64,000 bases of DNA from Candidatus Nomurabacteria bacterium (GCA_026395995.1 JAPLXQ010000011.1:4210-68209); one strand, 5' to 3'; positions 952-44,434 are shown, counted from the stretch's first letter. The notes: generated by a model from the sequence alone, not told the origin. Numbers and translations: made by a program.

Positions 952-1803
952 ATGTTTCGGAAGTATTTTTTAATTATTTTCGTTGCCTTTCTACTGGTAT
1001 TTAATATTTTTCTCTTTTATACGGACTATCAAAATGGTCATAGAATGCTGACTTTTGCAGCCCTAGATATCGGCCAAGGGGATGGGCTATTTATCGAGTC
1101 GCCGAGCGGTGTGCAAATGCTTGTCGATAGTGGACCGATACATAAAATAATGGCTCCACTAGCGAAAGTATTGCCACTGTATGATAAACACATCAATGCA
1201 ATTATGATTACGAATCCTGATGCGGACCATATCGGTGGTTTTATAGATATTTTGAAAAATTATGACGTGGATTATATTATCGAGCCGGGGACTTTTAATC
1301 CTTCGAAAACTTATGCGACGGTGGAGCAACTGGTAGTAGAAAAACATGTGAAGAAAATAATCGCCCGACGAGGAATGAAATTAAATCTCGGTGCTGGTGC
1401 ATATGTAAATATTTTATTTCCAGATCGTGATGTATCGACTTGGAATAGTAATGATGGCTCGATAGTGGCGCGACTTTCATATGGAAATAATTCTGTGATG
1501 CTGACAGGGGATGCGACTCAGAAGATAGAAGGAATTATTTTAGGTGAAAATCCAGCCCGGCTTTTAAAATCTGATATTTTAAAAGCCGGGCATCATGGAT
1601 CCCGCACCTCTACATCTTCGGCATTCGTAAAAGCCGTCGACCCTAACTATGCAGTTATTTCCGTCGGTAAAGATAATAAATATGGCCATCCACATCAGGA
1701 AATTCTCGACACTCTAGATTCTTTTAATATTAAAACCCTCCGCACCGACCTCCTCGGTACCATTATATTCAAAGGGGATAGCCTTGACTTTAAACTAAAA
1801 TAA
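952..1803 (+). CDS. ComEC/Rec2-related metallo-beta-lactamase-fold domain protein with N-terminal TM
   Basis: N-terminal hydrophobic helix; 'DIGQGDG...ITNPDADHIGG...AGHHGSRTSTS' matches the C-terminal MBL domain of ComEC-family proteins. Confidence 0.55.
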   Translation: MFRKYFLIIFVAFLLVFNIFLFYTDYQNGHRMLTFAALDIGQGDGLFIESPSGVQMLVDSGPIHKIMAPLAKVLPLYDKHINAIMITNPDADHIGGFIDILKNYDVDYIIEPGTFNPSKTYATVEQLVVEKHVKKIIARRGMKLNLGAGAYVNILFPDRDVSTWNSNDGSIVARLSYGNNSVMLTGDATQKIEGIILGENPARLLKSDILKAGHHGSRTSTSSAFVKAVDPNYAVISVGKDNKYGHPHQEILDTLDSFNIKTLRTDLLGTIIFKGDSLDFKLK

Positions 1804-3830: not shown

Positions 3831-4253
3831 ATGCCAACAGTCAACCAATTAATTAAAACAAGTAGAAAAACAACCCGTAAAAAGACAAAGACGGTAGCTT
3901 TGGCGCGTGGATTCAATATCTTGAAAAACAAGCCAGTTTTTTACCCAGCTCCTTTTAAAAGAGGAGTTTGTACAAAAGTTTCAACTACCACTCCAAAGAA
4001 GCCTAACTCAGCTCTCCGTAAAATCGCCCGTGTTCGCCTTACAAATGGAATGGAAGTAACTGCTTATATCCCAGGAGAAGGACACAACTTACAAGAACAC
4101 TCCGTCGTAATGCTACGTGGAGGACGTGTGAAAGACTTGATCGGGGTTCGTTACCACATCGTTCGCGGTGTACTCGATACTCAAGGAGTAGAAAAGAGAA
4201 GACAAAGTCGTTCATTGTACGGAAATAAGAAACCAAAAGCAGTAAAGAAATAA
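3831..4253 (+). CDS. rpsL: 30S ribosomal protein S12
   Basis: MPTVNQLIK...KKPNSALRK... is the canonical S12 sequence; start at the internal ATG. Confidence 0.95.
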
Positions 4254-4267
4254 TTTAAATAATATAT

Positions 4268-4738
4268 ATGCGAAGAAAAGTAACAAATAGAAATATAGTA
4301 GAACCAGATTTTGTTTACAACTCTACAAAGTTGGAGAAGTTTATCAATTACATTATGTGGGACGGAAAGAAGGAGACAGCACGTAAAGTGATGTATGCTG
4401 CTTTTGATATTGTAAAAGAAAAGACTGGTAACCCAAACCCTCTAGAAGTTTTTGATCTTGCTATGAAAAATGCTGGACCACTTACAGAAGTTCGCTCAAA
4501 GCGTATCGGAGGTGCAAACTACCAAGTTCCTCGTGAAGTTTCACCAGCTCGTCGTCTTGCTCTTGCTATGCGATGGATTCGTGACGCTGCTCGTAACAAG
4601 AAGGGCCAACCAATGGCTACAAAGCTCGCTGATGAAATAATCGCAGCTTCAAAAAATGAAGGTATTGCTATCAAAAAGAAAGAAGATACTCACAAGATGG
4701 CAGAATCAAACAAAGCATTTGCTCACTTCGCTTGGTAA
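4268..4738 (+). CDS. rpsG: 30S ribosomal protein S7
   Basis: 156 aa with canonical S7 motifs, immediately downstream of rpsL. Confidence 0.95.
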   Translation: MRRKVTNRNIVEPDFVYNSTKLEKFINYIMWDGKKETARKVMYAAFDIVKEKTGNPNPLEVFDLAMKNAGPLTEVRSKRIGGANYQVPREVSPARRLALAMRWIRDAARNKKGQPMATKLADEIIAASKNEGIAIKKKEDTHKMAESNKAFAHFAW

Positions 4739-4756
4739 TACTAAATACTTAAAACA

Positions 4757-4785
4757 AAAAATCCCCAATAGGGGATTTTTTGTTT
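4757..4785 (+). terminator. rho-independent terminator (aaaaaatccccaataggggattttttg)
   Basis: GC hairpin plus T-run after rpsG; a near-identical hairpin recurs at 18961-18990 after rplB. Confidence 0.6.
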
Positions 4786-4787
4786 AG

Positions 4788-4822
4788 TTGACTTTTATTT
4801 ATGTGTATGCTATTCTTTAAAT
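4788..4822 (+). promoter_or_regulatory. sigma70-like promoter TTGACTTTT-N-TATGCTAT (family member)
   Basis: TTGACT at 4788-4793 and an extended -10-like element; same module as at 19024, 20177 and 21042. Confidence 0.45.
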
Positions 4823-4999
4823 GAAGTTGTTTAAAGATATTAAGGGAAACACGCCATGGTTTTCCTTTTGGCCCTCAGAAGTACAGATTTTTGAAGCTTG
4901 CTGCTTTATTTTGTATGGACGAGGGTCTTTTTTTTTTGACAAAATGGTCTGTATTTTGTACCTTTAGGTAAAGAGACAAATAGTTCTAAAACAAAACAA

Positions 5000-5503
5000 A
5001 TGAAAAATCTCATAATCGTTGTAGCTGGTGATTTTAATAATCATAGCTTTGCTCATATTATCAAAGCTGATATCAATAGCTTAGGTGAAGAATTACAAAG
5101 AAAGAGACTAAAAGATATTTTGATTTATAGTTCTACTGATGAAAATCATGTAAAAACAGCAGAAATTATAAATAAATATTTGAAAACAGAATGTTTTCAG
5201 GACGAAGAAATACTTTTTACTAAAAATACAAAGTTAGCCAAAAAAGATAAACTATCCATAGTTATGGACTATTTATTGGTGCCATCTCATAGTTCAGAAA
5301 CAGTTATTCTTGTTGTTAATGTGAATTATGCGACAGACCTGGTTTTAGCTTGTGCTGATTTATATATTCAGAAAAAGTTAGACTTTGAAAAAAATTTAAT
5401 TAAAAGTTGCGATGCTATGGTTATTGATTTAGAACATAAAACATTCTATAAAATGATTATTAGAACTTCATCATTTAACAAGTATAATCATAAAATATAT
5501 TAA
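5000..5503 (+). CDS. hypothetical protein (first gene of the island in the str operon)
   Basis: 167 aa ORF with no confident motif match. Confidence 0.4.
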   Translation: MKNLIIVVAGDFNNHSFAHIIKADINSLGEELQRKRLKDILIYSSTDENHVKTAEIINKYLKTECFQDEEILFTKNTKLAKKDKLSIVMDYLLVPSHSSETVILVVNVNYATDLVLACADLYIQKKLDFEKNLIKSCDAMVIDLEHKTFYKMIIRTSSFNKYNHKIY

Positions 5504-5664
5504 AATCGACTTAGTTTTTTTAGGAGAGTCATAACCCCTGTGTTTAGTTTACTAGGTTAATACACCTCTGGCAGATAGTCTGCTCGGAGGTTTTTTATTT
5601 GACTAATGTATCCATATTTTGTATTGTTTGGGTAAAGATAAACAGTTCCAAAAAATTAAAGAAA

Positions 5665-6135
5665 ATGAGCAATAGAACTAGGGCAAAACGAAAAGCCCGT
5701 AACAAAGAACTAAATATTCTTAAAAGGATGAAAAATCCAAAAAGCATATGCTTGGTTGAAGATACAAAAAAGTATTTAAAAGAATGGAAGAAATTATTTG
5801 AAGAAATTGATCCTGATATAGAAGTTTTTATTGATGTAAATAAACTAGCTTGGCATTCAGTTGAAAGAAAAACAGGATTAGAGCATTCTAGAATTGTAGA
5901 CATAACACATGATGTGTACATGTTAGTCATTATTCGTTTTCCATTTTTAAATGAAAAATATTTATTTTGTGGTAATGATACAGCTTATGAAAGAAGCTCT
6001 GTTATTCCATTAGAAGATCCTTATTGGTGTGACACCATTACAGAGATTGTTACTTGGCAGGAACTTTATGAAAGAGTTGTTGCTATTGTTAATAACGAAA
6101 GAGGTCAAATTCCAAAACCTGCCCCAGTAACCTAG
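5665..6135 (+). CDS. hypothetical protein
   Basis: ORF start taken at MSNRTRAK; the upstream part of the tracked ORF is the translation of a duplicated promoter module. Confidence 0.4.
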   Translation: MSNRTRAKRKARNKELNILKRMKNPKSICLVEDTKKYLKEWKKLFEEIDPDIEVFIDVNKLAWHSVERKTGLEHSRIVDITHDVYMLVIIRFPFLNEKYLFCGNDTAYERSSVIPLEDPYWCDTITEIVTWQELYERVVAIVNNERGQIPKPAPVT

Positions 6136-6191
6136 GGCAGGTTTTTTATTTGCAAAATAAAGAGAAATATTAACGAAACATAATTATCCAC

Positions 6192-6211
6192 ATCTACGCT
6201 ATAGCGTAGAT
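6192..6211. repeat. 20 bp perfect palindrome ATCTACGCTATAGCGTAGAT (copy 1)
   Basis: Seen directly; an identical copy lies at 6617-6636. The two flank the Cas2-like ORF. Confidence 0.9.
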
Positions 6212-6234
6212 GATGAATATAATATAATTAACAT

Positions 6235-6594
6235 ATGGTTATGAATAAGAAAAAGAAATACAAAGGTGTCTCTGTAAATTTATTCGGGTTACCTGATGTA
6301 GATCTTTATGAAAATAAGAAGATTGTAAAAAGAATTTATCTCGATTCTTTTGCTACTGATTTTAAAGAGAATGCACCGAAGAATTTAATTCTTATGTATG
6401 ATATTCCAGATAACATGAAAAAGCATCGAGATTGGTTTCGTCGTCAGTTAAAAAGTTTTGGTTTTATAATGGTTCAAAAGAGTGTCTGGGTTGGCCCATC
6501 ACCATTACCAAAAGACTTTTTGGAATATTTGAAAGAAATTAAAATAGGGGACAAGTTTAAAACTTTTAAATTAGCTAAAGCTTATAAATTCTAA
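6235..6594 (+). CDS. Cas2-fold (Cas2/VapD-like) protein, orphan
   Basis: 'LILMYDIPDNMKKHRDWFRRQLKSFGFIMVQKSVWVG...IKIGDKFKTFKL' aligns with the Cas2 beta1-alpha1 core (LVxYDV...KRR..V.K....G.RVQ.SVF...DSvRiY). About 48 aa N-terminal extension. No cas1 or CRISPR array in the window. Confidence 0.45.
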   Translation: MVMNKKKKYKGVSVNLFGLPDVDLYENKKIVKRIYLDSFATDFKENAPKNLILMYDIPDNMKKHRDWFRRQLKSFGFIMVQKSVWVGPSPLPKDFLEYLKEIKIGDKFKTFKLAKAYKF

Positions 6595-6616
6595 TTAATT
6601 ATTACTGATATCTTCA

Positions 6617-6636
6617 ATCTACGCTATAGCGTAGAT
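6617..6636. repeat. 20 bp perfect palindrome ATCTACGCTATAGCGTAGAT (copy 2)
   Basis: Identical to 6192-6211; sits between the Cas2-like stop and the promoter of the next ORF. Confidence 0.9.
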
Positions 6637-6712
6637 GAAATTTTGCTGTTTGACTTGTCTTCGTATATTTTGTATTGTTTGGGTAGATATAATAATTCTT
6701 AAAAAAATTAAG

Positions 6713-7240
6713 ATGAAAAAGAATTTTAAGCCTATAAACTTAACTGACAAAGGTCCAATCTTTGATTTAGATGGTCATATGCCGACAGAAGAAAATTTTG
6801 CCCATGTTCTTTTAGAACTTTTTTCTAAAAAAGTATTACCCAAAACCAGAAGAAAGATCACTGTACTTGTTTCTGGAATTAAATATCACAAACTTAGAGC
6901 TGGGCAATGGGATCGTGAACCTTTCCGTTATGAAGAAGAAAAAACTTACACTTTTGGTTTTCTTTGTAGAAAATGGAGAGATGATTCTGGTGGAAAAGAT
7001 TTTGATCCTGAGGAATTTAAAAGAGAGTCTGAGATTCATTTTAAAATATTAGAAAAACAAGGAGATAAAAAATCAGCTTGGACTCCATATGTTTTTCATA
7101 AACAATATGAAAATGCTATTAAAGCTGAAAATAAATATCAGCAAGAGCTTAAAAATGCCCGAGAACCTGAAACGATTAAAAAAATAATAAAGAAAAGAGA
7201 AAGTGAATATTCTAGTTCTCAATTATACGTTGGAGGATAG
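6713..7240 (+). CDS. hypothetical protein
   Basis: ORF start taken at MKKNFKP; preceded by a TTGACT-N17-TATTGTTTGGGTA promoter module duplicated at 5598-5640. Confidence 0.4.
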   Translation: MKKNFKPINLTDKGPIFDLDGHMPTEENFAHVLLELFSKKVLPKTRRKITVLVSGIKYHKLRAGQWDREPFRYEEEKTYTFGFLCRKWRDDSGGKDFDPEEFKRESEIHFKILEKQGDKKSAWTPYVFHKQYENAIKAENKYQQELKNAREPETIKKIIKKRESEYSSSQLYVGG

Positions 7241-7367
7241 TGAATAGGTTCTAAAATTAAACTGCATGTAAATGCAGTTTTTATTTGCAAAATTGAGGAA
7301 AATGTTTTATATTAAAGGTATTAGGGCTTTGGCCTTTTTTTATTAATTATTAACAATAAACATATAT

Positions 7368-9515
7368 ATGGAAAGAGATTATCCACTAGAGAAAGTTAGA
7401 AATATTGGAATTATTGCCCACATCGATGCGGGTAAGACTACTACGACAGAGCGTGTGCTTTATTACACAGGTGTTTCACATAAAATCGGTGAAGTTCACG
7501 ATGGAGAAACGACTACAGACTGGATGGAACAAGAGCGTGAAAGAGGTATAACTATTACTTCTGCTGCTGTTACTTGTTTCTGGACACCGACATATGCACT
7601 TACAGACAAGAGTAAGAAACACCGTTTCAATATTATCGATACTCCTGGGCACATTGACTTCACAGTGGAAGTAAAAAGATCTCTCCGTGTACTCGACGGT
7701 GCTGTCGTCGTATTTGATGGTGTTGCTGGGGTAGAACCTCAATCAGAAACAAACTGGCGTTATGCTGACGAAGCGAAAGTTCCTCGTATTTGTTTCGTGA
7801 ACAAGCTCGACCGTACAGGTGCTTCATTTGAACACTCATTCGCAACTATTTTAGATCGTTTGAATAAAAATGCTGTTCGTTACCAAATCCCTATCGGCCT
7901 AGAAGAAAAGCATGAAGGTGTTATTGATCTTTTGAAAATGAAAGCTTATTACTTTGAAGGTGAAATGGGTAATAAAGTTATTGAAAAAGATATTCCTGAA
8001 GAAATGAAAGCAGATGCACAAAAGTATCATGCAGAATTGATTGAAAAAATCGTTGAAACAGATGATGTTATGATGACAGAATATTTGGATGGAAAAATTC
8101 CAAGTGTTGAAGTTTTGAAAAAGACTTTACGTAAGGCTGTTATTAATAATGATATTTTCCCAGTTTTCGCTGGATCAGCACTGAAAAACAAGGGTGTACA
8201 ACTCGTACTCGATGCTGTCATTGATTACTTACCAGCTCCTACAGACATTCCTCCTATCGGTGGAATCAATGTTGATACAGAAGAACCAATGGTTCGTCAT
8301 GCTTCTGATGCAGAACCTTTTTCTGCTTTGGCTTTCAAAATCGCTACTGACCCATTCGTAGGACAAATCATTTTCTTCCGTGTATATTCTGGAACTCTTT
8401 CAGCTGGAAGTTATGTTTACAATCCTCGTACAAGAAACAAAGAAAGAATTGGACGTATTCTTCGTATGCATGCGAATGATCGTGAAGAAGTGAAACAAGT
8501 TTTCGCTGGAGAAATCGCAGCTGCTGTAGGACTCAAAGATACAATTACTTCAGACACACTTTGTGATGAAGCAAACCCAATTATTTTGGACCGTATCGTT
8601 TTCCCTGAACCAGTTATTTCTCTACGTATCGAACCAAAGACAAAAGCTGACCAAGAAAAAATGGGTATGGCACTCAATCGCCTTGCTCAAGAAGACCCTA
8701 CTTTCAAAGTTTCAACTGATCAAGAAACAGGAGAGACTATTATTGCCGGAATGGGAGAACTTCACCTTGAAATTATCGTTGATCGTATGAAAAGAGAATT
8801 TTCTGTGGAAGCAAATGTAGGTAAACCACAAGTAGCTTACCGTGAGACTATCACTGGTTCTTCAGAAGTAGAGGGTAAATACATTAAACAATCTGGAGGT
8901 CGTGGAAACTATGGTCACGTGAAGATCAAGATCAAGCCTATGGTTCCTATGACAAAAGAAGAAGTAGCTGATTTACCAAAAAATACAAAACGTACAGAAG
9001 GATTTGAATTCATTAACACAATTAAAGGAGGTGCTATTCCACAAGAATATATTGCTCCTTGTGAGAAGGGATTTAAAGAAGGTCTCGATCGTGGAGTACT
9101 CGCTGGTTTCAAAATGGTGAATGTATCTGTCGATCTTTGGGACGGATCTTTCCACGAAGTGGACTCAAACGAAATGGCCTTCAAAATCGCAGCCTCAATG
9201 GCCATACAAGATGCTTGTAAGATGGCTCGCCCTGTGATCCTAGAACCGATGATGAAAGTCGAAGTAGTGACTCCAGACAAGTTCATGGGAGACGTCACAG
9301 GTAACCTCTCATCAAAGCGTGGACTTATCGAAGGAATGGAAGACCGTGGTATGAATAAAGTTGTTAAAGCAATCGTTCCGCTTTCAGAAATGTTCGGATA
9401 CATGACTGGTCTACGTTCTATGACAGAAGGCCGTGCTTCATTTACTATGGAATTCTTACGTTATGATATAGTGCCACAAAACGTTGCGGATACTATTATT
9501 GCAGCGAGAAAGTAG
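7368..9515 (+). CDS. fusA: elongation factor G
   Basis: 715 aa; [15 protein letters not shown] and DTPGHIDF G-domain motifs, full EF-G architecture. Confidence 0.97.
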
Positions 9516-9523
9516 AAGTTAAT

Positions 9524-9612
9524 TCCTCCTCCCCTTAGCTAAGGGGAGGAATGAGGTGGGGTGCTGAATTTTGCACCCCCTCCCAACCTCCCCCTTGGCA
9601 AAGGGGGATGGA
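9524..9612. repeat. GC-rich triple-hairpin intergenic repeat (copy A)
   Basis: cctcctccccttagctaaggggagga / ggtggggtgctgaattttgcacccctcc / cctcccccttggcaaagggggatgg; about 90% identical to 39288-39380. Confidence 0.85.
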
Positions 9613-9630
9613 AACTCAAAACTTTAAAAG

Positions 9631-9660
9631 AGCCCCGCCTTACGGCGGGGCTCTTTTCTT
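9631..9660 (+). terminator. rho-independent terminator after fusA
   Basis: agagccccgccttacggcggggctcttttctt hairpin plus T-run. Confidence 0.65.
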
Positions 9661-9745
9661 GCATTTATTTTTGATAGTGATATCATTTAATTAAACAATA
9701 GTCCCTTGTAATATTCATAGGGAAAACCTAAAATCATTAAAAACA

Positions 9746-10009
9746 ATGATAAAACTTGGAATTAATTGGACAGCACTACTCGATGAGTACTGGTATCTGT
9801 CATTTGTTCTCGTTGGTGCACTTCTTTTGATTATTGTAATTAGATATTTCGTTAAAAAAAGAAATAAACTAAAAGCAGTTTCTTTATCAAAACAAAAAAC
9901 AACAGAACAACAAAAAAACGCTTCTGGAAACGGAAAGCACACAAATCACGATCCATATTTTTCTCGTATTAAAAAACGAGCAAAGGTTCGTGCAGTAGTA
10001 ACAAAATAA
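9746..10009 (+). CDS. small membrane protein (hypothetical)
   Basis: Single TM helix followed by a basic tail. Confidence 0.35.
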   Translation: MIKLGINWTALLDEYWYLSFVLVGALLLIIVIRYFVKKRNKLKAVSLSKQKTTEQQKNASGNGKHTNHDPYFSRIKKRAKVRAVVTK

Positions 10010-10096
10010 AAAAGTCCGGCAGATTGCTGGACTTTTTTGCTTTTTAATTTAATGTGTGTTATTCTGTTTTTAGATAAATTTAAACAGATTTTTGAT

Positions 10097-10345
10097 ATGC
10101 AAAAAAAAAGATTAATTACAATTGTATTTGCTGCACTTTTTTATGGTACAGTTTTTATTTTAATAATTACTGGTGTGATAAATAATTCACAAAAACCAGA
10201 GAAATTAGAACCAAAAGACTATCCAAAAGTAACCTTCATTAATACTTATTCTGATTTGTATTTTGACCCTGAGGATAACACCAAAGAAGGTGTAATTTTT
10301 TTAAAACATCATAGTGATGACTGCATAGAATGCATTTATTATTAA
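10097..10345 (+). CDS. small membrane protein (hypothetical)
   Basis: Start at MQKKRLITIV; one TM helix; C-terminal Cys/His cluster. Confidence 0.35.
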   Translation: MQKKRLITIVFAALFYGTVFILIITGVINNSQKPEKLEPKDYPKVTFINTYSDLYFDPEDNTKEGVIFLKHHSDDCIECIYY

Positions 10346-10441
10346 AAATTAAAACCCCGATCACTCGGGGATTTTTTATTGACAAAATTCAGAAAAACTA
10401 TAGTATTCTACTTAGAATAAATAGTACTAAAAAAATAAATT

Positions 10442-10981
10442 ATGAACAAACCAGTTAGTGGCTTTAATCTTGATGCAATGCTTCAAGAAGGATTGAAAAA
10501 AGATAAACACATAGTACTTCCATTGAATTTGAACTACAAAGAGATATCTGAGGGTATTCGTCAGTTTAATATTGGTGATGAAAAAAGGCTATTTGCTTTG
10601 AATAAAAGTATCATTACTAAAACAAAAGATTTGGTATTGGCTTACCGGATGAATTTAGCTCTTTATCTAGAGCATGGTGATGATGGGATTAATGCATATG
10701 AAAAAACGATTGATTACATAAAAGAAGTGGCTCCTAATGTTCCCGTGTTGTCTGTTATGGATTTAGCTGGAAGTGATATAAAAGAAGGTATTTCAATTCA
10801 GCAAATCATTAAAGACGATTTAAAGAACGAATGTAAAACTTTTGTAATTAATGCCCCGGATGAGATAGTTTTTATTCAAAAGGTAGAAGACTTCGCCTTG
10901 GTAATCAGAAAAAAATTGGAAAAACTAAATGATAAAATTATGGAAACTAAAAAGCAGGTTTTGGGATCGATGATTTCATAA
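10442..10981 (+). CDS. hypothetical protein
   Basis: 179 aa ORF followed by a terminator hairpin (agcgggact..gtcccgctttt). Confidence 0.45.
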   Translation: MNKPVSGFNLDAMLQEGLKKDKHIVLPLNLNYKEISEGIRQFNIGDEKRLFALNKSIITKTKDLVLAYRMNLALYLEHGDDGINAYEKTIDYIKEVAPNVPVLSVMDLAGSDIKEGISIQQIIKDDLKNECKTFVINAPDEIVFIQKVEDFALVIRKKLEKLNDKIMETKKQVLGSMIS

Positions 10982-11019
10982 AATAAAAAAAGCGGGACTT
11001 ATTGTCCCGCTTTTACTAT

Positions 11020-12024
11020 TTATTTATATAAATTTTCTTTGTCCCCGAATAATTCCCAAGCTTTTCTTCTGACACTTCCAATAGCCCATGGTTTCAAGAA
11101 TTCAATCGAGTCCAGAGAAATACTATTAGCCCCAGCATGATGTAATGCCTCGACATCATTTTTATTGAGCGGTCCTCCACTATTGATATGTTTATGAAAA
11201 CCAGCATCACGTAAACCTTTGATGTATGTTAAAATTAACGGTAAAATTATTTTACCTGAAAGTCCTCCCAAATCAAGAATATGTAAACTCTTTTCTATTA
11301 GAGGGGAACCATCTGGATATAATTTTTTCCAATTAATTTCATTTGGTAAATTACCAAATTTAACCATACTTGAGATGGTAATAGCGTAGCAATTTGAATG
11401 CTTTTCAAATTGTATGACATTTTCAATCGGCATTTCTACTGAAATTTTTACAATAATTGGAATCCCTTTTTCTACTAAAGGTGTACACATATCTAGTATC
11501 TTTAACATTGTTTGTAGTTCTCTTGATTTATACTCAGTAAAATCAAGTTGTAATCCAATTTGGGCTTTAAAATCATTCTTTGATTTTAATAGCATTGTAA
11601 CGAATTCATCAAATTCCGATAATCTTTTTTCTTCAGTATTTATACTAGAAATAAAGGATATTTGAAAAGGATCAGTCCTCTCATGTAGCTGATAAGAAGA
11701 CAGGACAGTATTTGCTCCTGGACCATCCGGATTCAGGTCTTTTAATACACATTGATTTTTTCTATCTATGTGTATATTTTTCCTGAAAAATTTTTTTGGC
11801 ATCAAATCGTCTTTTAGTTTGATATTACTTTTATGTGCTTCCAATGTCGTTGTTTTAGAAACAAAAGTTAAGCCATCGAAATTAATACCGAGTTTGTCTA
11901 AAATTTTATGATATGGCCAACCTTGACCATAAAAATTTAATAGTCCTGCCTCACCCCAAATAACTTCAAAAGGTACGCCATGTATATTCACTTTTCGGTG
12001 AAAATCTTTTATTCTTTTTTTCAT
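11020..12024 (-). CDS. dihydroorotate dehydrogenase-like TIM-barrel protein (PyrD family, divergent)
   Basis: 'IWGEAGLLNFYGQG' and C-terminal 'LGGLSGKIILPL' resemble the DHODH substrate and FMN-phosphate loops. Confidence 0.45.
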   Translation of the reverse strand: MKKRIKDFHRKVNIHGVPFEVIWGEAGLLNFYGQGWPYHKILDKLGINFDGLTFVSKTTTLEAHKSNIKLKDDLMPKKFFRKNIHIDRKNQCVLKDLNPDGPGANTVLSSYQLHERTDPFQISFISSINTEEKRLSEFDEFVTMLLKSKNDFKAQIGLQLDFTEYKSRELQTMLKILDMCTPLVEKGIPIIVKISVEMPIENVIQFEKHSNCYAITISSMVKFGNLPNEINWKKLYPDGSPLIEKSLHILDLGGLSGKIILPLILTYIKGLRDAGFHKHINSGGPLNKNDVEALHHAGANSISLDSIEFLKPWAIGSVRRKAWELFGDKENLYK

Positions 12025-12140
12025 ATTTTTTTTACAATTTACAATTTATATTTTTTCTACCAGTACCTTAACACATTTATGCATGTTTGACAAATTTCCT
12101 CTTTTGACAAAGAGGTTTTTTGTAGATAGACTAAAGAAAA

Positions 12141-13076
12141 TTGAAACTTAAAAAGAAAAAGATTATGAATGTTACAGGACTTAAAATAGGCGGGTCTAAT
12201 TTAAAAGACCCAGAATCAGTAAAAAATATTGTAAATATATTAAAAGAGAGAAGTGCAGATAGGCCTTATTTTGTAGTTGTTTCTGCTATGTATGGAATGA
12301 CCAGACTTTTGGAAAAAATTCATAATACAAATATTGTAAGAATTAAAACTGGAAAAAAGATTGAAATGGTTCAACATTACAATGAATTTATCGGTTTTCA
12401 TGAGAACATGGTAAATGTTTTATTTGAAGGTAAAAACAACAAAGCAAGCTTTAGGAAATTGATTGAAGATTTTGATGAGACTATTATGACGGCAGGCTTC
12501 TTTTCAGAAGCTTTAGTAAAAGCAGAGATTTTATCTTTCGGAGAACGATTCTCTTCTTTAATTTTGAGTAATTATTTGAATTCTCAAAATATTAACAATA
12601 CTTTGATTAGAGCTTTTGATTTTATGGTTACGAATAATGATTTTGACAATTCAATCGTTTGTTTTGAACAAACTAATCAGAACATAGTAAATCAGTTTAC
12701 AAATTTAATGCTTAAAAATAGTGTGGTAATAACTGAAGGATTTATAGGAAGGACCAAAATCAACGGCAATCCATTTTACACTAATCCTGGTGGTTGGAAT
12801 GGATCAGATTATACCGCCAAAATAATAGCTGACGCCTTGGATGCTAAGAAACTTGTCTTTTATAAAGATACTTTTCTAATGGACATAAATCCAAATGCAC
12901 CAGGTGGCGAAAAGGCCAAAAAGATTGAAACTATTTCTTATGAGAATTTAAGGATGAAGATTTTGAATAAATCTGCTGGAACGATTTTACACGAAAAGGT
13001 TCTTTTAGGTAAAAGAATTCCAATAGAAATTCGCTCCTCTTTAAGTCCAAAAGAAGAGGGAACTAAGGTTTTTTAG
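12141..13076 (+). CDS. amino-acid kinase family protein (aspartokinase-like)
   Basis: 'LKIGGSNL...FVVVSAMYGMTRLL' matches the aspartokinase/carbamate kinase N-terminal fold. Confidence 0.5.
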   Translation: MKLKKKKIMNVTGLKIGGSNLKDPESVKNIVNILKERSADRPYFVVVSAMYGMTRLLEKIHNTNIVRIKTGKKIEMVQHYNEFIGFHENMVNVLFEGKNNKASFRKLIEDFDETIMTAGFFSEALVKAEILSFGERFSSLILSNYLNSQNINNTLIRAFDFMVTNNDFDNSIVCFEQTNQNIVNQFTNLMLKNSVVITEGFIGRTKINGNPFYTNPGGWNGSDYTAKIIADALDAKKLVFYKDTFLMDINPNAPGGEKAKKIETISYENLRMKILNKSAGTILHEKVLLGKRIPIEIRSSLSPKEEGTKVF

Positions 13077-13181
13077 ATAGTATTTTTGCCCAGCTTCGCA
13101 ATGCGAAACTGGGCATTTTTTTTGACATATTTATATAAACATGTTACTTTTAAATTAAACAAACCAAAATTTATTTGAAAA

Positions 13182-14555
13182 ATGAATATAAAGATTACTG
13201 AAGAAAAAAAGACATTCATTCGAATGTTGTTATATTTAATGGTTCCCAAAAAAGTGATTGCAAAAATGCTTGATGTGAATGAAGTTACTATTGGAAAACA
13301 TTCAAAGCTAACAAAGGCTGAGATGAATGATATGGGACCTCAACCAGAAGGACAGGAATTGAGACTTGAAGTATTCAAAATGTATGTTTGGAGTCAAACA
13401 GATATTTTAGAAATGAGTATGGTGTTTGGAGTTTCTATAGCAGAAATTGAATCAATACAAAAAGCAATTTTTGATTATTTGAAAATGCAACGCTGTGTTT
13501 CATATTGTGAAGGTATTATCACTTCAGTTTTTCTGTATCAGAAAATTCAATTTGAATCGACTATATCGGTCGAAGAAAAAAAGCTGGTTGAAAAACTATT
13601 TGAACATCAAACATATGAATCTATATATTTGAAAGAAAAAAAACCAGGTAAAAAACTTTTCTTTGATTGTTGTATGCGGATACACAAGGAGCAAGAGTTA
13701 TTGATGCCAACTAAGTATAATATTTATCGTCCGGAAGAGTGTTTGACAAAAGTAATAGATTCATTTGTGAATGAAGAACGGAGTAAAGTAGGAGTATACA
13801 TCTCAAAAAGATTTGTTGATTTTATTAAATCTTTTTTTGCTACTTTAAGTAAAAAGGAACAAGCAAGTTTGTATAGTCTTGCGGAGTTGCCTGAGTTTGT
13901 AGAGGCATTTACTGAATACAAAAATTTAAAACCGAATGCTATTCAATCAAAACGTAAAACAGCATTGATACTATTACGCGGTAGAATAAAGCATTATTTA
14001 AAATTGGGAGAAACTATTATTCCAGAAGGAAAAAAACATTTAGATGACATTTTGCATCACCTAGAACTTGTTCAGAAAAAAGAGTCGGAATTACTTAACC
14101 TGAAAAAAGACTTTGAAAAATTTCAACTTACAGCTATAAGGTTGGCTAAGTTCTCAGCAGAGAATATGCCTATTGAAAAAGTAGATGATACAATTGTCGC
14201 TTCTATTCAAAAAGTAGATCCTGAGCTTTTAAAATTGATAAAAACTATAGAGCCAGTTCAACTTGTCCCGGTGGGTGTGGAAGTAATACAAAGTGAGCAA
14301 ATGAAGTTTTATCTGACAAATATAATGGATATGGATTTATCAGTTAGGTTATATACCTGTTTATCATATGCTGAAATAGAGTATGGTTGGCAAATATTAA
14401 CCATTTCTAAACATGATTTCCTTAAGTTCAGAAACTTTGGTAAAAAATCTATGATTGAATTAGAAGAATTAATTCATAATAAAAAACTTGTTTTTAATTC
14501 TATTGATCCATCACTTCAAAGGTATTTGGAAGATAAGATAATAAAAAAGAAATAA
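13182..14555 (+). CDS. hypothetical protein with C-terminal RNA polymerase alpha-CTD-like (HhH) domain
   Basis: C-terminus 'DLSVRLYTCLSYAEIEYGWQILTISKHDFLKFRNFGKKSMIELEEL' matches the alphaCTD consensus (LSVRxxNCLK..I..GDL...TE.ELLK..N.GKKSL.EI). The N-terminus is not alpha-NTD-like. Confidence 0.45.
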   Translation: MNIKITEEKKTFIRMLLYLMVPKKVIAKMLDVNEVTIGKHSKLTKAEMNDMGPQPEGQELRLEVFKMYVWSQTDILEMSMVFGVSIAEIESIQKAIFDYLKMQRCVSYCEGIITSVFLYQKIQFESTISVEEKKLVEKLFEHQTYESIYLKEKKPGKKLFFDCCMRIHKEQELLMPTKYNIYRPEECLTKVIDSFVNEERSKVGVYISKRFVDFIKSFFATLSKKEQASLYSLAELPEFVEAFTEYKNLKPNAIQSKRKTALILLRGRIKHYLKLGETIIPEGKKHLDDILHHLELVQKKESELLNLKKDFEKFQLTAIRLAKFSAENMPIEKVDDTIVASIQKVDPELLKLIKTIEPVQLVPVGVEVIQSEQMKFYLTNIMDMDLSVRLYTCLSYAEIEYGWQILTISKHDFLKFRNFGKKSMIELEELIHNKKLVFNSIDPSLQRYLEDKIIKKK

Positions 14556-14650
14556 TGGTTAGGATTCGCCCCGCGCTTGAAAAGCGCGGGGCTTTTATGT
14601 TGTATTAACCCTCTCCTTAACAAGGAGAGGGCAGGGTGAGGTGAATCCAT

Positions 14651-14682
14651 TTGACTTTATTTTTCAATCTGCTAGTATAGGA
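14651..14682 (+). promoter_or_regulatory. promoter TTGACT-N17-TAGTAT with conserved TCTGCTAGTATAGG box (upstream of tuf)
   Basis: The same TCTGCTAGTATAGG box recurs at 27429-27442 (upstream of rpsN) and 39410-39423 (upstream of ndk). Confidence 0.5.
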
Positions 14683-14810
14683 ACATAACTGCACTTTTGG
14701 CAGTTTTTGTTTGCAATTTTTATAAAATTTATTAATTTAATTAAAGTTAGTGGTCTAAATTTAGCAACTTCTCGTATGTTAAGTTTTAACTAGTAACTAA
14801 AAATAAGTAT

Positions 14811-16007
14811 ATGGCAACAGAAGAATTTAAAAGAGACAAGCCACACGTAAACGTTGGTACAATCGGTCACGTTGACCACGGAAAGACTACTTTAACAGCA
14901 GCTATCTTGAACGTTCTTAATTTGAACGGTAAAACTGTTAAAATGAAGGGTGTTGGAGATATCGACAATGCTCCTGAAGAAAAAGCTCGTGGAATCACCA
15001 TTAACATTTCTCACAATGAGTACTCTACAGATGCTCGTCACTATGCTCACATTGATGCCCCAGGACACGCCGACTACATCAAAAACATGATCACAGGTGC
15101 TGCTCAAATGGACGGTGCTATCCTTGTCGTAGCTGCTACTGATGGTGCTATGCCACAAACACGTGAACACGTTCTTCTTGCAAAACAAGTTGGTGTTCCA
15201 AAGATTATCGTTTTCTTAAACAAATGTGACATGGTTGATGACAAAGACATGATTGACATGGTTGAAGAAGAAATCCGTGAATTGCTTACAAAACAAGGTT
15301 TTGATGGTGCAAACGCTCCTGTCATCCGTGGATCAGCTCTAAAAGGACTTGAAGCTACAGATGCTACAGACCCTTGGGCAATGAAGATCATGGATCTTGC
15401 AAACGCTCTTGATACATATATCCCAGTTCCAGAACGAGATACAGCAAAACCTTTCCTAATGGCTATTGAAGATATCTTCTCTATCGAAGGACGTGGAACA
15501 GTTGTAACTGGAAAAATCGAAAGAGGAATAGTAAAAGTAGGTGAAGACGTTGAAATTGTTGGTATTAAAGCTACACAAAAATCAACAGTCACTGGTATTG
15601 AAATGTTCAACAAGAACCTTCAAGAAGGTATGGCTGGAGACAACGCTGGTATCTTGCTCCGTGGATTAAAGAAAGATGATATTACTCGTGGACAAGTTCT
15701 TGCAAAACCAGGAACAGTGACTCCTCATGATAACTTTACTTGTGAAGTTTACATCTTGAAAAAAGAAGAAGGTGGACGTCATACTCCATTCTTCAAAGGT
15801 TACAAGCCACAATTCTACATCCGTACTACAGACGTTACAGGAGAAGTTGAATTAGCAGAAGGAGTAGAAATGGTTATGCCTGGAGATACAGCAAAATTCA
15901 CAGTGAAATTGGTTTCACCAGTCGCACTTGAAGATCAACAAAGATTTGCTATCCGTGAAGGAGGAAAGACTGTCGGTGCCGGAGTCGTTACAAAAATTAT
16001 TGCTTAA
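14811..16007 (+). CDS. tuf: elongation factor Tu
   Basis: [18 protein letters not shown] and NKCD motifs; 398 aa. Confidence 0.98.
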
Positions 16008-31430: not shown

Positions 31431-31525
31431 TAATTTAATTTAACTTTCTTAAAAAGTGACACAAATTCTGCATAGGCAGAATTTGTGTCACTTTTGTTTT
31501 TTTATTATAGTATAATAAAATTATT

Positions 31526-36532: not shown

Positions 36533-39280
36533 ATGGAATCAATATTTAAAGATATGCCAAAGTTCAAGTCTCCAGATGAGGAGCTTAGTTATTTACGTAA
36601 GCATGTCGCCGAAAGAGAACAAGCCTTGATAGACAAAGGTCATTTTGAAAATGCGATTGAAAATGCAAGTAACGAAGTCATTACAGAATACATGCAAGCT
36701 CCAGCAGAAAAGGTAATCCATAAAGATATTTTAATTAAAGAAAAAGAATCAGAGGCGATTGTTTTAAAATTAAAACCTGAAGCTCATGACGTAGTGATGG
36801 AAGAAATTCTTGGAATTCTTTTAACTAAAGGAATAAAAAATGCTATGTCGATAGTGGAATCAATGAATAGTCCCCATATTGACGACGATTTTCATCGCTT
36901 ATTAATTCAATATTTAAAAACTGGTGAAATACTTTCTGATCTAAAAGAAGGTTCACCTCTTTGGAAAGAATTGAACATGACACTTTTTGAAGTCACACTA
37001 CCACCATCAAATGATGGCAGTGAAAAGAGAGGTTTCAAAGATTTCATCGGAGCGATGGAGCAGTTTTACGCTGGAATGCAGTCTATTTCTAATGGGTTGA
37101 ATAATGAAAATGAAAATTATTTTACACTTGAGATTGCTTTGGGTAACCAGAGTGATGAAGTCGTCGTCTACGCTGGAGTACCAAATGAATATCTTTCTCT
37201 TTTTGAAAAACAAATTTTAGCTTTTTACGATAATGCCAAGATTATGGAAGTATCTGACGATTACAATATTTTTGCAGACAAGGGCCATTCTGCTGGGGCC
37301 TATGCTCATTTTTATGAAAAACCAATCTTGCCGGTAAAGACTTATGAAGAAATAGATCATGATCCAATGAATACTATTTTGAATGTTTTTTCGAAATTAA
37401 AAAAGGGAGGGGAGGGTGCAGCGATTCAGCTGATTGTTTGTCCAGCTGGAGATAGATTTACCAAAGAATTCCATATGATTTTGAATGAGGTTAAAGCAGG
37501 AAGCTCTATCAAGCATGCTTCTGATAATTTTTACAAATTACATAAAGCTTTTTGGTCAGCCTCAAAAGAATTAATTTTTGGACCAAAGAAAAAAGAAGAT
37601 GAGACAAAAAAATACAGTGAAGGTTTTCGTGTTGTCGATGAAGGTGGTGCAGAAAAAATTGCTAACAAGCTAAAGAGTACTATTATGAAGGCTAATATTC
37701 GTATTGTGACTTCGGCCGATAGCACTGAGCGAGCAGAAGTAATCTTGAAAGAAATAGAATCTTCTTTTAATCAATTTACTTTACCTGGAAATAATTCTTT
37801 TGTTTTTGAAAAATCTAATGGTAATGATTTGAAAAAACTTTTTCATGATTTTTCTTATCGAGCTTTTACTCCACATGAGACATTACCGATGAATTTAAAA
37901 GAGCTCGCTTCAGTCTTTCATTTTCCTGTCGGAATTTCATCTCAACCACAACTCAAAGAAGCCAAAGCTGGTATTGCTCCTGCTCCAATGGAAATGGGTG
38001 ATGAAGGTATTGTCCTCGGTGTAAATAGTTATAGAGGTAAAGATACAGAGATACGTATGACTCGTGAAGATCGTGTACGTCATATGTACGTAATCGGACA
38101 GACAGGTACCGGTAAGACAAATATTTTGCTTAATATGATTACTCAAGATATTAAGAATGGTGATGGTTGTTGTTATATCGATCCACACGGTACAGATATT
38201 CAAACTATTCTTTCTCGTATTCCAAAAGAGCGTATTGATGATGTTATTTATTTTGATCCTGCTTATACGGCACGTCCTATGGGATTAAATATGCTTGAAT
38301 ACGATCCACGTTATCCAGAACAAAAGACATTCGTAGTAAATGAATTGATGGGTATTTTTAATAAACTCTTTACTAAAGAATCTATGGGTCCGATGTTTGA
38401 ACAGTATTTTAAAAACTCAGCTTTCCTCATAATGGATGATCCAGAAACTCCAGGAACATTGCTTGAGATTACTCGTGTCCTTGGTAATAAAGAATATCGC
38501 GATTCACTTCTCGCTAAGTGTAAAAATCAAATCATTAAAGAATTTTGGCGCAGTGCAGAGGCAACAACAGGGGACCAATCAATTGCAAACTTCGTACCGT
38601 ATATTTCATCAAAATTCGATAACTTCATTTCCAACGATATTATGCGCCCAGTTGTACTTCAACAAAAATCCGTTTTCAACTTCCGTGAGATTATGGACAA
38701 CAAAAAAATACTCTTGGTAAATCTTTCAAAAGGAAGACTGGGAGATATAAATGCGAACCTTATCGGCCTATTGCTCGTCGGTAAAATACAAATGGCAGCA
38801 CTTTCTCGTGTAGATATGTTTGGTCAAAAGATGAATGATTTTTATTTGTATATCGATGAATTCCAAAATGTCACCACTGATTCTATCTCCTCAATTCTTT
38901 CTGAAGCTCGTAAATATCGTCTGTCTCTAAATATTGCACATCAATATATTTCTCAGCTTGATGAAGGAATTAAAAATGCCGTCTTTGGTAACGTCGGATC
39001 TATGGCTGTATTCCGTATCTCGCCTGAAGATGCGGCTTTTCTAGAACCAAAATTCAAACCGACATTTTCCGCTTCTGATATTATAAAAATTGATAACTAT
39101 AATGCCTATGTCTCAATGCTCGTAAAAGGTCAGCCGACAAAACCATTCAATATGCATACGATTGCTCCAGAAGCAGGAAATCCAGAAATTGTCGATGCTT
39201 TGAAAGAACTTTCATATCTAAAATACGGTCGCGACCGTGAAGAGATTGAAGAGGAAATCATGGCGAGGTATTCGAGTTAG
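36533..39280 (+). CDS. VirD4/TraG/TraD-family (type IV coupling protein-like) P-loop ATPase with a large soluble N-terminal domain
   Basis: Walker A GQTGTGKTN, Walker B YIDEFQN, and C-terminal 'RKYRLSLNIAHQYISQL...FGNVGSMAVFR' matching the TraG-D_C / T4CP motif. No N-terminal TM helices. Confidence 0.6.
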   Translation: MESIFKDMPKFKSPDEELSYLRKHVAEREQALIDKGHFENAIENASNEVITEYMQAPAEKVIHKDILIKEKESEAIVLKLKPEAHDVVMEEILGILLTKGIKNAMSIVESMNSPHIDDDFHRLLIQYLKTGEILSDLKEGSPLWKELNMTLFEVTLPPSNDGSEKRGFKDFIGAMEQFYAGMQSISNGLNNENENYFTLEIALGNQSDEVVVYAGVPNEYLSLFEKQILAFYDNAKIMEVSDDYNIFADKGHSAGAYAHFYEKPILPVKTYEEIDHDPMNTILNVFSKLKKGGEGAAIQLIVCPAGDRFTKEFHMILNEVKAGSSIKHASDNFYKLHKAFWSASKELIFGPKKKEDETKKYSEGFRVVDEGGAEKIANKLKSTIMKANIRIVTSADSTERAEVILKEIESSFNQFTLPGNNSFVFEKSNGNDLKKLFHDFSYRAFTPHETLPMNLKELASVFHFPVGISSQPQLKEAKAGIAPAPMEMGDEGIVLGVNSYRGKDTEIRMTREDRVRHMYVIGQTGTGKTNILLNMITQDIKNGDGCCYIDPHGTDIQTILSRIPKERIDDVIYFDPAYTARPMGLNMLEYDPRYPEQKTFVVNELMGIFNKLFTKESMGPMFEQYFKNSAFLIMDDPETPGTLLEITRVLGNKEYRDSLLAKCKNQIIKEFWRSAEATTGDQSIANFVPYISSKFDNFISNDIMRPVVLQQKSVFNFREIMDNKKILLVNLSKGRLGDINANLIGLLLVGKIQMAALSRVDMFGQKMNDFYLYIDEFQNVTTDSISSILSEARKYRLSLNIAHQYISQLDEGIKNAVFGNVGSMAVFRISPEDAAFLEPKFKPTFSASDIIKIDNYNAYVSMLVKGQPTKPFNMHTIAPEAGNPEIVDALKELSYLKYGRDREEIEEEIMARYSS

Positions 39281-44089: not shown

Positions 44090-44434
44090 TTATTGAGGCG
44101 GATTTTGTGTTATGGATTTCATCCAGCCGTTTGCCATCATGGAAATATTTTGTAAATTTTCTGCAAGGAGTAGATATTGTTTTTCAGGAATTATTTTGAG
44201 TTCGTATTCAGTACGGATTAAGTGTTTCAATACTTCAGTTTTCAATCTGACTTCTTTCAAATATTGTAATTTTTCTAATTTTGGACGAAAAGCTGATTCG
44301 ATACTCATCGCGAGCAAATGCAGGGAATATTCTTCTATTTTTTTATGAATACCGAGTTTATCGGATTTTGGTAATTTATTTCCTAAAATATAAATAGTTT
44401 TATATAATTTCTTTATATGACTAATGATAGGCAA
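44090..44434 (-). CDS. avd: Avd-like accessory variability determinant (four-helix-bundle / 23S rRNA IVS protein family)
   Basis: 114 aa; 'LPKSDKLGIHKKIEEYSLHL...LQNISMMANGWMKSI' parallels the IVS/Avd family consensus (FPKEE.YGLTSQLRRAA.SI...E.ML.GLIKSL). Confidence 0.7.
   Translation of the reverse strand: MPIISHIKKLYKTIYILGNKLPKSDKLGIHKKIEEYSLHLLAMSIESAFRPKLEKLQYLKEVRLKTEVLKHLIRTEYELKIIPEKQYLLLAENLQNISMMANGWMKSITQNPPQ

Follow-up and report, generated by a model that had tools for sequence, protein, structure and literature searches.

We analysed a 64-kb stretch of DNA from a Candidatus Nomurabacteria bacterium (Patescibacteria, also called candidate phyla radiation or CPR), hereafter the window, over the whole of which all coordinates are counted. 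Our subject is the 2.6-kb gap between rpsG and fusA in its str operon, in which ORF listing and Pfam searches revealed four small open reading frames (ORFs), and above all the third of them, ORF3, which encodes a 119-aa protein of Cas2-type fold. An earlier reading made from the sequence alone had seen that rpsG and fusA are separated by four small ORFs with promoters and terminators of their own, a layout confirmed by the ORF list, Pfam and the signals; it had overlooked that an exact 20-nt palindrome, ATCTACGCTATAGCGTAGAT, stands on both sides of ORF3. The genes, the two palindromes and the ORF3 promoter are arranged as follows.

3831 to 4253, plus strand: rpsL (ribosomal protein S12), the upstream anchor in the str operon (ORF list; Pfam Ribosom_S12_S23, E = 1e-36).
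4268 to 4738, plus strand: rpsG (ribosomal protein S7; Pfam Ribosomal_S7, E = 9.8e-58; 98% identity to S7 of the sister genome L001).
5000 to 5503, plus strand: ORF1, a 167-aa orphan gene (NT068_03445), with a self match only among 5.8 billion proteins.
5665 to 6135, plus strand: ORF2, 156 aa, no family detected; ATG 5665 is the probable start, with an alternative at 5599.
6192 to 6211, unstranded: upstream 20-bp palindrome ATCTACGCTATAGCGTAGAT, the proposed operator; dyad centre 6201/6202, at about -35.
6223 to 6228, plus strand: -10 box TATAAT of ORF3, 6 nt 5' of the ATG (leaderless layout).
6235 to 6594, plus strand: ORF3, 119-aa Cas2-fold/PaaX_M protein, a short form without helix-turn-helix (Pfam, NCBIfam, alignments, structure models).
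6617 to 6636, unstranded: downstream copy of ATCTACGCTATAGCGTAGAT, 22 nt past the ORF3 stop codon and 13 nt 5' of the ORF4 -35 element.
6713 to 7240, plus strand: ORF4, a 175-aa orphan gene (NT068_03460); ATG 6713 is the probable start, with an alternative at 6635.
7368 to 9515, plus strand: fusA (EF-G), the downstream anchor (Pfam, five EF-G domains; 99% identity to L001).

The best profile score of ORF3 was obtained with PaaX_M (PF20803; 52.9 bits, E = 3.9e-14, Pfam cut-off 24), above the scores given by the two Cas2 models (PF09827 CRISPR_Cas2, 30.9 bits, cut-off 23.8; TIGR01573 cas2, 32 bits, cut-off 24.5). All profile matches begin at about residue 50, so that the 48-aa N-terminal extension described in the sequence-only reading is real. 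No helix-turn-helix profile of Pfam matched the protein. Against the full-length PaaX model TIGR02277 the score was 20.2 bits, far under the cut-off of 264.55; the chain ends after PaaX_M and the PaaX_C domain is not present.

The AlphaFold model of ORF3 (120 homologues in the alignment; predicted local distance difference test score, pLDDT, of 73.7) has the predicted topology β1-α1-β2-β3-α2-β4, as in Cas2, with β1 at residues 49-55, α1 at 62-75, β2 at 78-81, β3 at 84-88, α2 at 93-102 and β4 at 108-117; the N-terminal part is modelled as a β-hairpin (residues 7-14) followed by a disordered linker. In a Foldseek search of the PDB the top matches of the model were Cas2, SSO8090, VapD and PaaX, yet with E values of about 1e-2 only. 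A structural comparison of the 119-aa protein with Cas2 and VapD had been proposed as a check on the original Cas2-fold assignment, which profiles, model and Foldseek all bear out. Asp56, invariant in the family, is aligned with the catalytic Asp of Cas2 at the end of β1, and the protein is probably dimeric through its Cas2-like (PaaX_M) domain. The best database match is a 100%-identical NCBI protein, named Cas2 and annotated from a 117-aa start; the 119-aa start fits better, with its ATG (6235) following a -10 box at 6223-6228 and a dyad centred on 6201/6202.

ORF3 belongs to a family of more than 1,744 homologues of about 120 aa, which are 55-70% identical over their full length, N-terminal part included. 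A scan of species-representative genomes returned 148 relatives, all from Patescibacteria, with two to three paralogs in several genomes; in the window, tblastn found one family gene only. Clustering at 50% gave 18 representatives at E ≤ 1e-30 versus 437 at E ≤ 1e-10, the latter being mostly 155-175 aa long. These long forms (about 160 aa) begin with an N-terminal helix, followed by a YKGVxVNxFGLP motif, by some 35 aa that resemble the recognition-helix and wing part of a winged helix, and by PaaX_M; weak matches to HTH_45, CggR_N, S19e and SSO2273 are the basis on which a winged helix was assigned. When short and long forms were aligned (alignment A2) they were found 39-53% identical end to end, with the YKGVxVNxFGLP motif and PaaX_M kept, and ORF3 without the first helix and the recognition-helix/wing segment. 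Because of this loss, ORF3 is a shortened derivative of a small PaaX-like protein rather than a CRISPR Cas2, that is, by descent, a truncated member of the PaaX_M-containing small proteins. Long and short forms co-occur in one genome (L001). No description of the family was found in the searchable literature; we regard it as uncharacterised, and its palindrome-promoter architecture, which is very regular, as previously unremarked.

Eleven species-level genomes have a family gene in the S7-EF-G gap (the window and L001, L008, L013, L050, L055, L056, L060, L071, L072 and L087), with 0 to 3 non-conserved ORFs before it and 0 to 9 after it; in L050 it lies directly between the two. The other paralog clades have fixed neighbourhoods too, always co-directional with their neighbours:

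SecF-LemA-x-[gene]-GatC-GatA.
RodA-FolD-[gene].
RNase III-SMC-[gene].
rpoD-[gene]-DUF378.

Its presence in the rpsG-fusA gap of 11 genomes and the fixed neighbourhoods of the paralogs argue that the Cas2-fold gene is a conserved resident and not a recent insertion. The sequence-only reading had taken the four ORFs for an accessory island and named, as what would speak against it, a housekeeping insertion conserved in related genomes. The comparison of str operons among relatives that it called for gave a divided answer: the family gene is conserved in the gap, which partly amounts to such a housekeeping insertion and counts against an insertion event, whereas ORF2 and ORF4 are replaced, as expected of accessory genes.

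The exact 20-mer ATCTACGCTATAGCGTAGAT was found at 6192-6211 and 6617-6636 and nowhere else in the window within three mismatches; as estimated from shuffles, no 20-nt palindrome pair is expected by chance. The same arrangement, one copy before and one after, is present in L001, and palindromes with the core ACGC-YATR-GCGT flank the family gene in most of about 80 related loci. The family consensus, on both sides of the gene and with variants, is the 20-bp ATCTACGC-YATR-GCGTAGAT; in distant relatives, found in another neighbourhood, the flanking palindromes are kept with the centre changed to CATG. Over the 80 or so loci, 104 sites were scored, with arms of 10-23 nt and a centre that was CATG (52), TATA (43) or mixed (about 5). 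The half-site occurs as ATCTACGC, ATATACGC, ATTTACGC, a swapped ..TCAGC form, AATTCAGC or ATCTCCAC, and the palindrome variant (ATCT, ATAT, ATTT, AATTCAGC or CTCCAC) is usually the same on both flanks of one gene. The related loci, 900 kb in all, hold 88 core sites, of which 82 have a family gene within 160 nt. Mismatches affected 32 of the 1,170 stem pairs in the scored sites; among them G-T (5) was not in excess over A-C (3), and the stems therefore carry no RNA-pairing signature.

The upstream copy is tied to a promoter. Whatever the arm length (10-22 nt), 22-23 nt separate its dyad centre from the best TATAAT-like hexamer that follows (63 of 75 loci), and the first in-frame start codon comes 6-9 nt past this hexamer (66 of 74 loci), which implies a leaderless mRNA. 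Some of the -10 boxes have a TGn extension, and a -35 hexamer is not recognisable. The fixed spacing between dyad and -10 box fits an operator and not a terminator, and this geometry places the upstream copy outside the gene's own transcript. The long-form genes have the same type of leaderless promoter, TATAAT then ATG. Two long-form paralogs, at 1194-1676 (minus strand) in L001 and at 560-1012 in L103, carry on both flanks a motif of their own of about 30-35 nt, AAATAACTC(T/A)GC(T/G)ATAGCA...TTAACATTT in the former and CTTATCACTTTCACRCACCTGTRAAA in the latter; a central GCYATRGC motif is common to the sites of long and short forms.

Several ideas about the palindromes were discarded. The downstream copy is not a plain intrinsic terminator, since a T tract follows only 27 of the 54 downstream copies scored. 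A fixed spacing to the next promoter was not general either: the weak peak at +43 to +48 came mostly from one clade. An integron-like cassette array was set aside because no related locus exceeds three palindromes. Where there is a third palindrome, it bounds an extra, poorly conserved ORF adjoining the family gene (L009, 5957-7075; L017, 5953-6921; L020, 5272-6391; L045, 1903-2980; L052, 2728-3324); in L020 a TATAAT box lies at +22 from it, as in the family promoter.

Indirect evidence on what binds the palindrome comes from the variation of the family protein. The columns most informative on the variable base of the half-site, AT[C/A/T]T, are all in the N-terminal extension (positions 13, 21 and 28-37). 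The ATCT class, which has the C:G variant, goes with '(I/V)(P/S)-KR-x-YL-x-SF', R33 being present in 22 of 24 members; the ATAT and ATTT classes, with A/T variants, go with 'NRK-R(S/N/K)-F-Y(H/N)'. The pairing of an Arg with a G:C base pair is chemically sensible, and the rule holds in the scattered lineages L036, L046, L047, L051 and L074.

From the above we propose, with about even confidence, that the 119-aa protein regulates its own gene by binding the palindrome that lies at -35 of the leaderless promoter, the second copy assisting. The protein would dimerise through its Cas2-like (PaaX_M) domain, and the dimer would bind the 20-bp palindrome ATCTACGC-YATR-GCGTAGAT. The upstream palindrome sits at about -35 of a promoter having a good TATAAT, no -35 element and an ATG 6 nt past the -10 box, and its occupancy would set the expression of the gene, with repression as the favoured sign. 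The downstream copy, near the stop codon, may help repression by DNA looping or, as a barrier or terminator, may shield the gene from the strong transcription of the str operon. ORF1, ORF2 and ORF4 are unrelated, fast-turnover orphan genes under a common promoter-leader of their own.

A number of points weigh against this proposal. The short form has apparently lost recognition helix and wing, with no known DNA-binding motif left, and in PaaX the known role of the Cas2-like domain is to form dimers and not to touch DNA. Asp56 is invariant, although mere DNA binding would not require it. The residue-to-base rule fails in L041 and L044 and, in the alignments at hand, is confounded by shared ancestry. 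It is not obvious what a regulator would control if nearly all its sites surround its own gene. Nor can the symmetry of the palindrome centres be used as evidence for a dimer on duplex DNA: this argument was withdrawn, because unrelated terminators of the window are also perfect palindromes with zero loop. A palindrome that stays perfect through the hairpin tip seems to be usual in this genome. At gene 3' ends (centres 9538, 39305 and 39364) we noted a second family of palindromes that are perfect and have zero loop, TCCTCCCCTTAGCTAAGGGGAGGA and relatives, and also, centred at 31473 and 51400, perfect bidirectional terminators that are very long (arms of 22-24 nt). Lastly, the palindromes away from family genes favour gene 3' ends, one block of them interrupts a coding gene, and these facts, described below, fit the behaviour of a dispersed repeat better than that of a simple regulon.

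An exact-match scan for the palindrome in metagenome contigs returned 80 loci. This set contains much noise, since 18 specified bases should give tens of matches by chance alone, and a group of hits in DHFR is a coding coincidence. Sites adjoining a family gene numbered 29, those too near a contig end to judge 20, and those without a family gene within 200 nt 45. The sites with two scorable neighbours were 14 convergent, 13 tandem and 1 divergent, against an intergenic background in the same loci of 54 convergent, 192 tandem and 41 divergent. Some resemble bidirectional terminators, with long arms between A/T runs. As promoters of the family type the orphan palindromes did not hold up, a -10-like box being at the right distance in only 13 of 65, a count made with no formal enrichment test. 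Modules of two palindromes of mixed classes recur in other loci, in tandem, and the window has one such block:

45016 to 45079, unstranded: two-palindrome block of 64 nt splitting a reverse transcriptase gene of the diversity-generating retroelement (DGR) type; its deletion restores the ORF.

The first palindrome of the block (45016-45039) is of the family type, ATAT class, AAATATACGCCATGGCTGATATTT, and the second has the centre GCGATAGC. The split ORFs are at 44424-45104 and 45136-45513. Removal of exactly 64 nt restores a 341-aa reverse transcriptase with an unbroken RVT_1 match (79 bits), of which residues 15-315 align with the reverse transcriptase of the Bordetella-phage DGR, 8ub7 (E = 4.7e-46). 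A bAvd-like gene adjoins it (44090-44434, minus strand; PF22296, E = 1.7e-12), and the region 44090-45513 is thus itself a locus of the DGR type.

These observations are the core of another explanation, which we consider unlikely, namely a selfish module resembling REP/RAYT or an insertion sequence. The Cas2-fold protein would recognise, and perhaps cut, its cognate palindromes as hairpins or cruciforms and disperse them; the gene would be flanked by its own ends, the left one overlapping the promoter as in many insertion sequences, and this Cas1-independent Cas2 relative, reading the repeats in a sequence-specific manner and processing them as hairpin or duplex DNA, would spread modules of them to the 3' ends of genes and now and then into a gene, as at 45016-45079. 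The identical palindromes on both flanks of a gene, the variants proper to each paralog, the bias of orphan copies to gene 3' ends (chiefly between convergent genes), the tandem mixed-class modules, the exact restoration of the reverse transcriptase frame, the extra ORFs bounded by a third palindrome in five loci and the invariant catalytic Asp would all be accounted for. The copy number is low for such an element, however: 3 sites in the window, all but 6 of the 88 core sites of the related loci lying within 160 nt of a family gene, and no related locus with more than three. Gene positions are kept within clades and paralogs are only 55-65% identical, so that there are no recent copies. Neither an HUH/Tyr transposase motif nor a nearby recombinase nor relatives in viral contigs were found with Pfam and IMG/VR; specifically, the protein had no Pfam match to the Y1 transposase of RAYT and IS200-IS605 TnpA, and no His-hydrophobic-His is present in the conserved columns of the family. 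Some of the metagenome 'orphan' matches are coding coincidences or chance. The constant spacing to the -10 box is, lastly, a property of promoters.

The lack of recognition helix and wing in the short form also makes room for a different binder. Here another factor, for example a paralog of about 160 aa with winged helix and PaaX_M, would bind the palindrome, and the short form would be its regulated partner in a dominant-negative or anti-repressor heterodimer. Such a pairing is compatible with the Cas2-like domain and YKGVxVNxFGLP motif that both forms possess, with their presence together in L001 and with the GCYATRGC centre of both kinds of site. Yet the co-occurrence is established for L001 and not for every short-form genome, and the palindrome variant tracks residues of the short form. 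Long forms, moreover, carry different flanking motifs of their own along with the same promoter type, which favours each protein binding its own flanks. We hold a separate binder to be quite improbable.

A function at the RNA level appears very unlikely. The protein would be a ribonuclease or RNA binder of the Cas2/VapD type which, acting on palindrome hairpins in read-through transcripts, would process, terminate or stabilise mRNA 3' ends, its own included. Cas2 and VapD relatives are indeed ribonucleases by their PDB names, the catalytic Asp is kept, and palindromes are found at 3' ends, some of them long-armed with A/T runs like terminators. Against this, the upstream copy precedes the inferred transcription start at a fixed distance from the -10 box, the stems have no excess of G-U wobble, and a T tract follows the downstream copy in half of the loci only (27 of 54).

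The sequence-only reading had offered a toxin, a regulator or a remnant of a minimal adaptation module as possible identities of ORF3; the regulator is the option that our results favour. As to the toxin, a small protein of Cas2/VapD fold in a cassette of small genes does recall a VapD-like member of a toxin-antitoxin pair, with a neighbouring small ORF as antitoxin. The neighbour census of about 80 related loci revealed no conserved partner gene: the sister genome has neither ORF2 nor ORF4, and the L050 gene has S7 and EF-G as its immediate neighbours. Conservation in the family is high, and gene positions agree with the clades as vertical inheritance would predict; PADLOC matched ORF3 with generic Cas2 models only. 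The toxin-antitoxin pair was rejected on the missing partner, and we consider it highly improbable. A phage or defence origin was similarly discarded, IMG/VR having no relatives in viral contigs, PHROG no match for any island ORF and PADLOC nothing other than the generic models.

With regard to CRISPR, the statement that the 64 kb hold neither cas1 nor an array stood up to testing. Tandem Repeats Finder detected no CRISPR-like array with repeat-spacer periodicity in the window, and there was no Cas1 Pfam match among 20 mid-sized or large ORFs of the window, which are about half of its 41 ORFs of at least 180 aa and include every ORF of 250-400 aa. Likewise, no cas1 or array was present among the Pfam-annotated neighbours of the three homologues whose contexts were examined. 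That ORF3 is a true Cas2 left behind in a degenerate adaptation module after the loss of cas1 and array, as its NCBI name and the passing of the Cas2 cut-offs might suggest, is scarcely credible and was rejected in view of these scans, of the higher PaaX_M score and of more than 1,700 conserved members with an N-terminal module and an operator architecture of their own.

The rest of the gap is of another nature. Its remaining signals are listed below.

4752 to 4785, plus strand: intrinsic terminator 3' of rpsG, a 15-bp stem followed by a T run.
4788 to 4935, plus strand: candidate small RNA or attenuator, 3' of the rpsG terminator and 5' of the ORF1 promoter (fold z = -2.7).
4936 to 4960, plus strand: ORF1 promoter, TTGACA-N10-TATTTTGTA type (three times in 64 kb, island only).
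About 5565 to 5597, plus strand: terminator-like hairpin and T run 3' of ORF1, read from the sequence.
5591 to 5662, plus strand: promoter-leader repeat, copy 1, 5' of ORF2 (72-nt direct repeat D1, exact 21-nt core).
6114 to 6145, plus strand: terminator over the ORF2 stop codon (inverted repeat I24 and T run).
6642 to 6713, plus strand: promoter-leader repeat, copy 2, 5' of ORF4 (D1 repeat).
7259 to 7280, plus strand: terminator 3' of ORF4 (hairpin).
7285 to 7336, plus strand: fusA promoter TTGCAA-N17-TATATT and leader hairpin (7323-7336), kept in L001.

G+C content is 0.27-0.32 across the island, versus about 0.38-0.41 in rpsL/rpsG and about 0.34-0.43 in fusA. ORF1 and ORF4 had self matches only among 5.8 billion proteins, and for ORF1, ORF2 and ORF4 no family was found in Pfam, NCBIfam, PHROG or PADLOC. 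Between the window and L001, S12, S7 and EF-G are 94, 98 and 99% identical and the Cas2-fold protein 87%; ORF1 is 32% identical to its counterpart over 66 aa only, and ORF2 and ORF4 are replaced by unrelated ORFs, the position of ORF4 being held by one of 64 aa. The promoter-leader of about 70 nt before ORF2 and ORF4 is, for its part, 85-87% conserved in L001. Promoter-like sites are found at 4936, 5599 and 6650, and within the 64 kb the type TTGACW-N10-TATTTTGTA is confined to three places, in front of ORF1, ORF2 and ORF4; outside the window it was found in L001 only. The common promoter-leader can be written TTGACW-N10-TATTTTGTA...GGTAAA..AAACAGTTC (4936-4960, 5599-5623 and 6650-6674; L001 copies at 8804, 9449 and 10431). 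With promoter-leaders kept and two of the three ORF bodies unrelated in L001, the locus appears to behave like a cassette-swapping site. The label of accessory island thus suits ORF1, ORF2 and ORF4, which are orphan or replaced in L001; it does not suit the Cas2-fold gene, present here in 11 genomes.

A few side observations were made around these genes. The candidate small RNA or attenuator at 4788-4935 comprises a TTGACT-N17-TATTCT promoter, two hairpins and a T10 run, and is kept in L001 with compensatory stem changes; the loop of its hairpin 1, CACGCCATGG, resembles half of the family palindrome. Rfam gave no match for it, and no known RNA family at threshold in the island. The hairpin at 7323-7336, short, terminator-like and with a T run, precedes the fusA start codon and may be a fusA leader attenuator. 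Further downstream, fusA and tuf (14811-16007) are set apart by about 5.3 kb (9516-14810), which contain small orphan ORFs, a minus-strand 334-aa ORF without family, an amino-acid-kinase-family gene (12141-13076) and a 457-aa protein (13182-14555) whose sole match is the C-terminal domain of RNA polymerase alpha; the str operon of this genome is therefore broken at more than one place. One relative (L005/L006, 3489-4583) shows again that a core operon of these bacteria can lodge accessory genes: there, upstream of the family gene, rpoC is parted from dnaG by inserted genes for a PemK-type toxin and an ART-PolyVal-like protein. Elsewhere in the window, a 915-aa protein (36533-39280) has weak matches to TrwB/TraG-type coupling proteins and HerA-like ATPases (E from 2e-6 to 9e-4), and may be part of a DNA-transfer or DNA-uptake machine.

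The identification of this family has consequences for annotation. Many of its 1,700-plus CPR members are labelled 'CRISPR-associated endonuclease Cas2', while those examined are without CRISPR context, so that surveys of solo cas genes or CRISPR in these bacteria would be inflated by the family. To our knowledge, very few recognisable regulators have been seen in candidate-phyla-radiation bacteria; a conserved, multi-paralog family of 120-aa proteins in the neighbourhoods of str, gatCAB, folD, smc and rpoD, every gene having its palindrome at an exact spot and a leaderless promoter, constitutes a testable regulatory or insulating system. Should the short form bind DNA without a helix-turn-helix, a Cas2-like domain with a short basic arm would be a new mode of reading palindromes. 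The dispersed copies and the clean insertion in the reverse transcriptase gene leave room for a repeat-mobilising role of a Cas2 relative; were the REP/RAYT-like interpretation true, this would be a case of free-living repeat recognition by a Cas2-type protein, relevant to the recruitment of Cas2 to palindromic CRISPR repeats.

Five known systems resemble the ORF3 locus in part. The VapD toxins (VapXD, VapD-VapW) are of the same fold superfamily and are small stand-alone proteins outside CRISPR loci; ORF3 differs from them by having no adjacent antitoxin, and its structural likeness to VapD is weaker than to Cas2. REP/RAYT (TnpA-REP) and the Rickettsia palindromic elements also present a single small ferredoxin-fold gene between cognate palindromes, with one palindrome class per paralog and extragenic copies that favour gene 3' ends and convergent gaps, one being inside a coding gene. 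Unlike them, the ORF3 family is without HUH/Tyr, has few extragenic copies and not hundreds, and has its upstream copy locked to a promoter.

In restriction-modification systems, the controller (C) proteins are small, regulate their own genes and have their palindromic sites 17-18 nt ahead of the start codon of a leaderless message (PMC2632904). C.PvuII and C.AhdI thus share with ORF3, whose binding is proposed, the small size, the palindrome at a fixed short distance before the start and the leaderless mRNA; they are Xre-type helix-turn-helix proteins controlling a downstream toxic nuclease gene, whereas ORF3 has a Cas2-like fold, a second site past the gene and no conserved downstream gene. 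CRISPR Cas2 has in common with it the ferredoxin-like β-α-β-β-α-β fold (Cas2 chains being its best PDB neighbours), YD(I/V) with the invariant Asp at the end of β1, the Q-x-SV(W/F) of β2, and a small, probably dimeric protein. It is set apart by the ORF3 locus, which has no cas1, array or other cas gene and lies in a housekeeping neighbourhood, and by the 48-aa N-terminal extension and the promoter-operator architecture proper to ORF3.

Finally, the PaaX repressors (E. coli PaaX; PF07848 + PF20803 + PF08223; PDB 8a39) share the Cas2-like middle domain, which is the best profile match of ORF3 and in it reads IPE..RD.FRR.L..F.F...Q.SVWVGP. ORF3 has neither the N-terminal winged helix nor PaaX_C nor a paa operon, its neighbours being ribosomal and translation genes, and in the place of the DNA-binding domain it has a short YKGVSVNxFGLP + KR-x-Y segment. 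In these bacteria, the relatives of about 160 aa do pair a winged helix with the PaaX_M domain and, as with PaaX, palindromic or dyad sites are found at the gene's own promoter.

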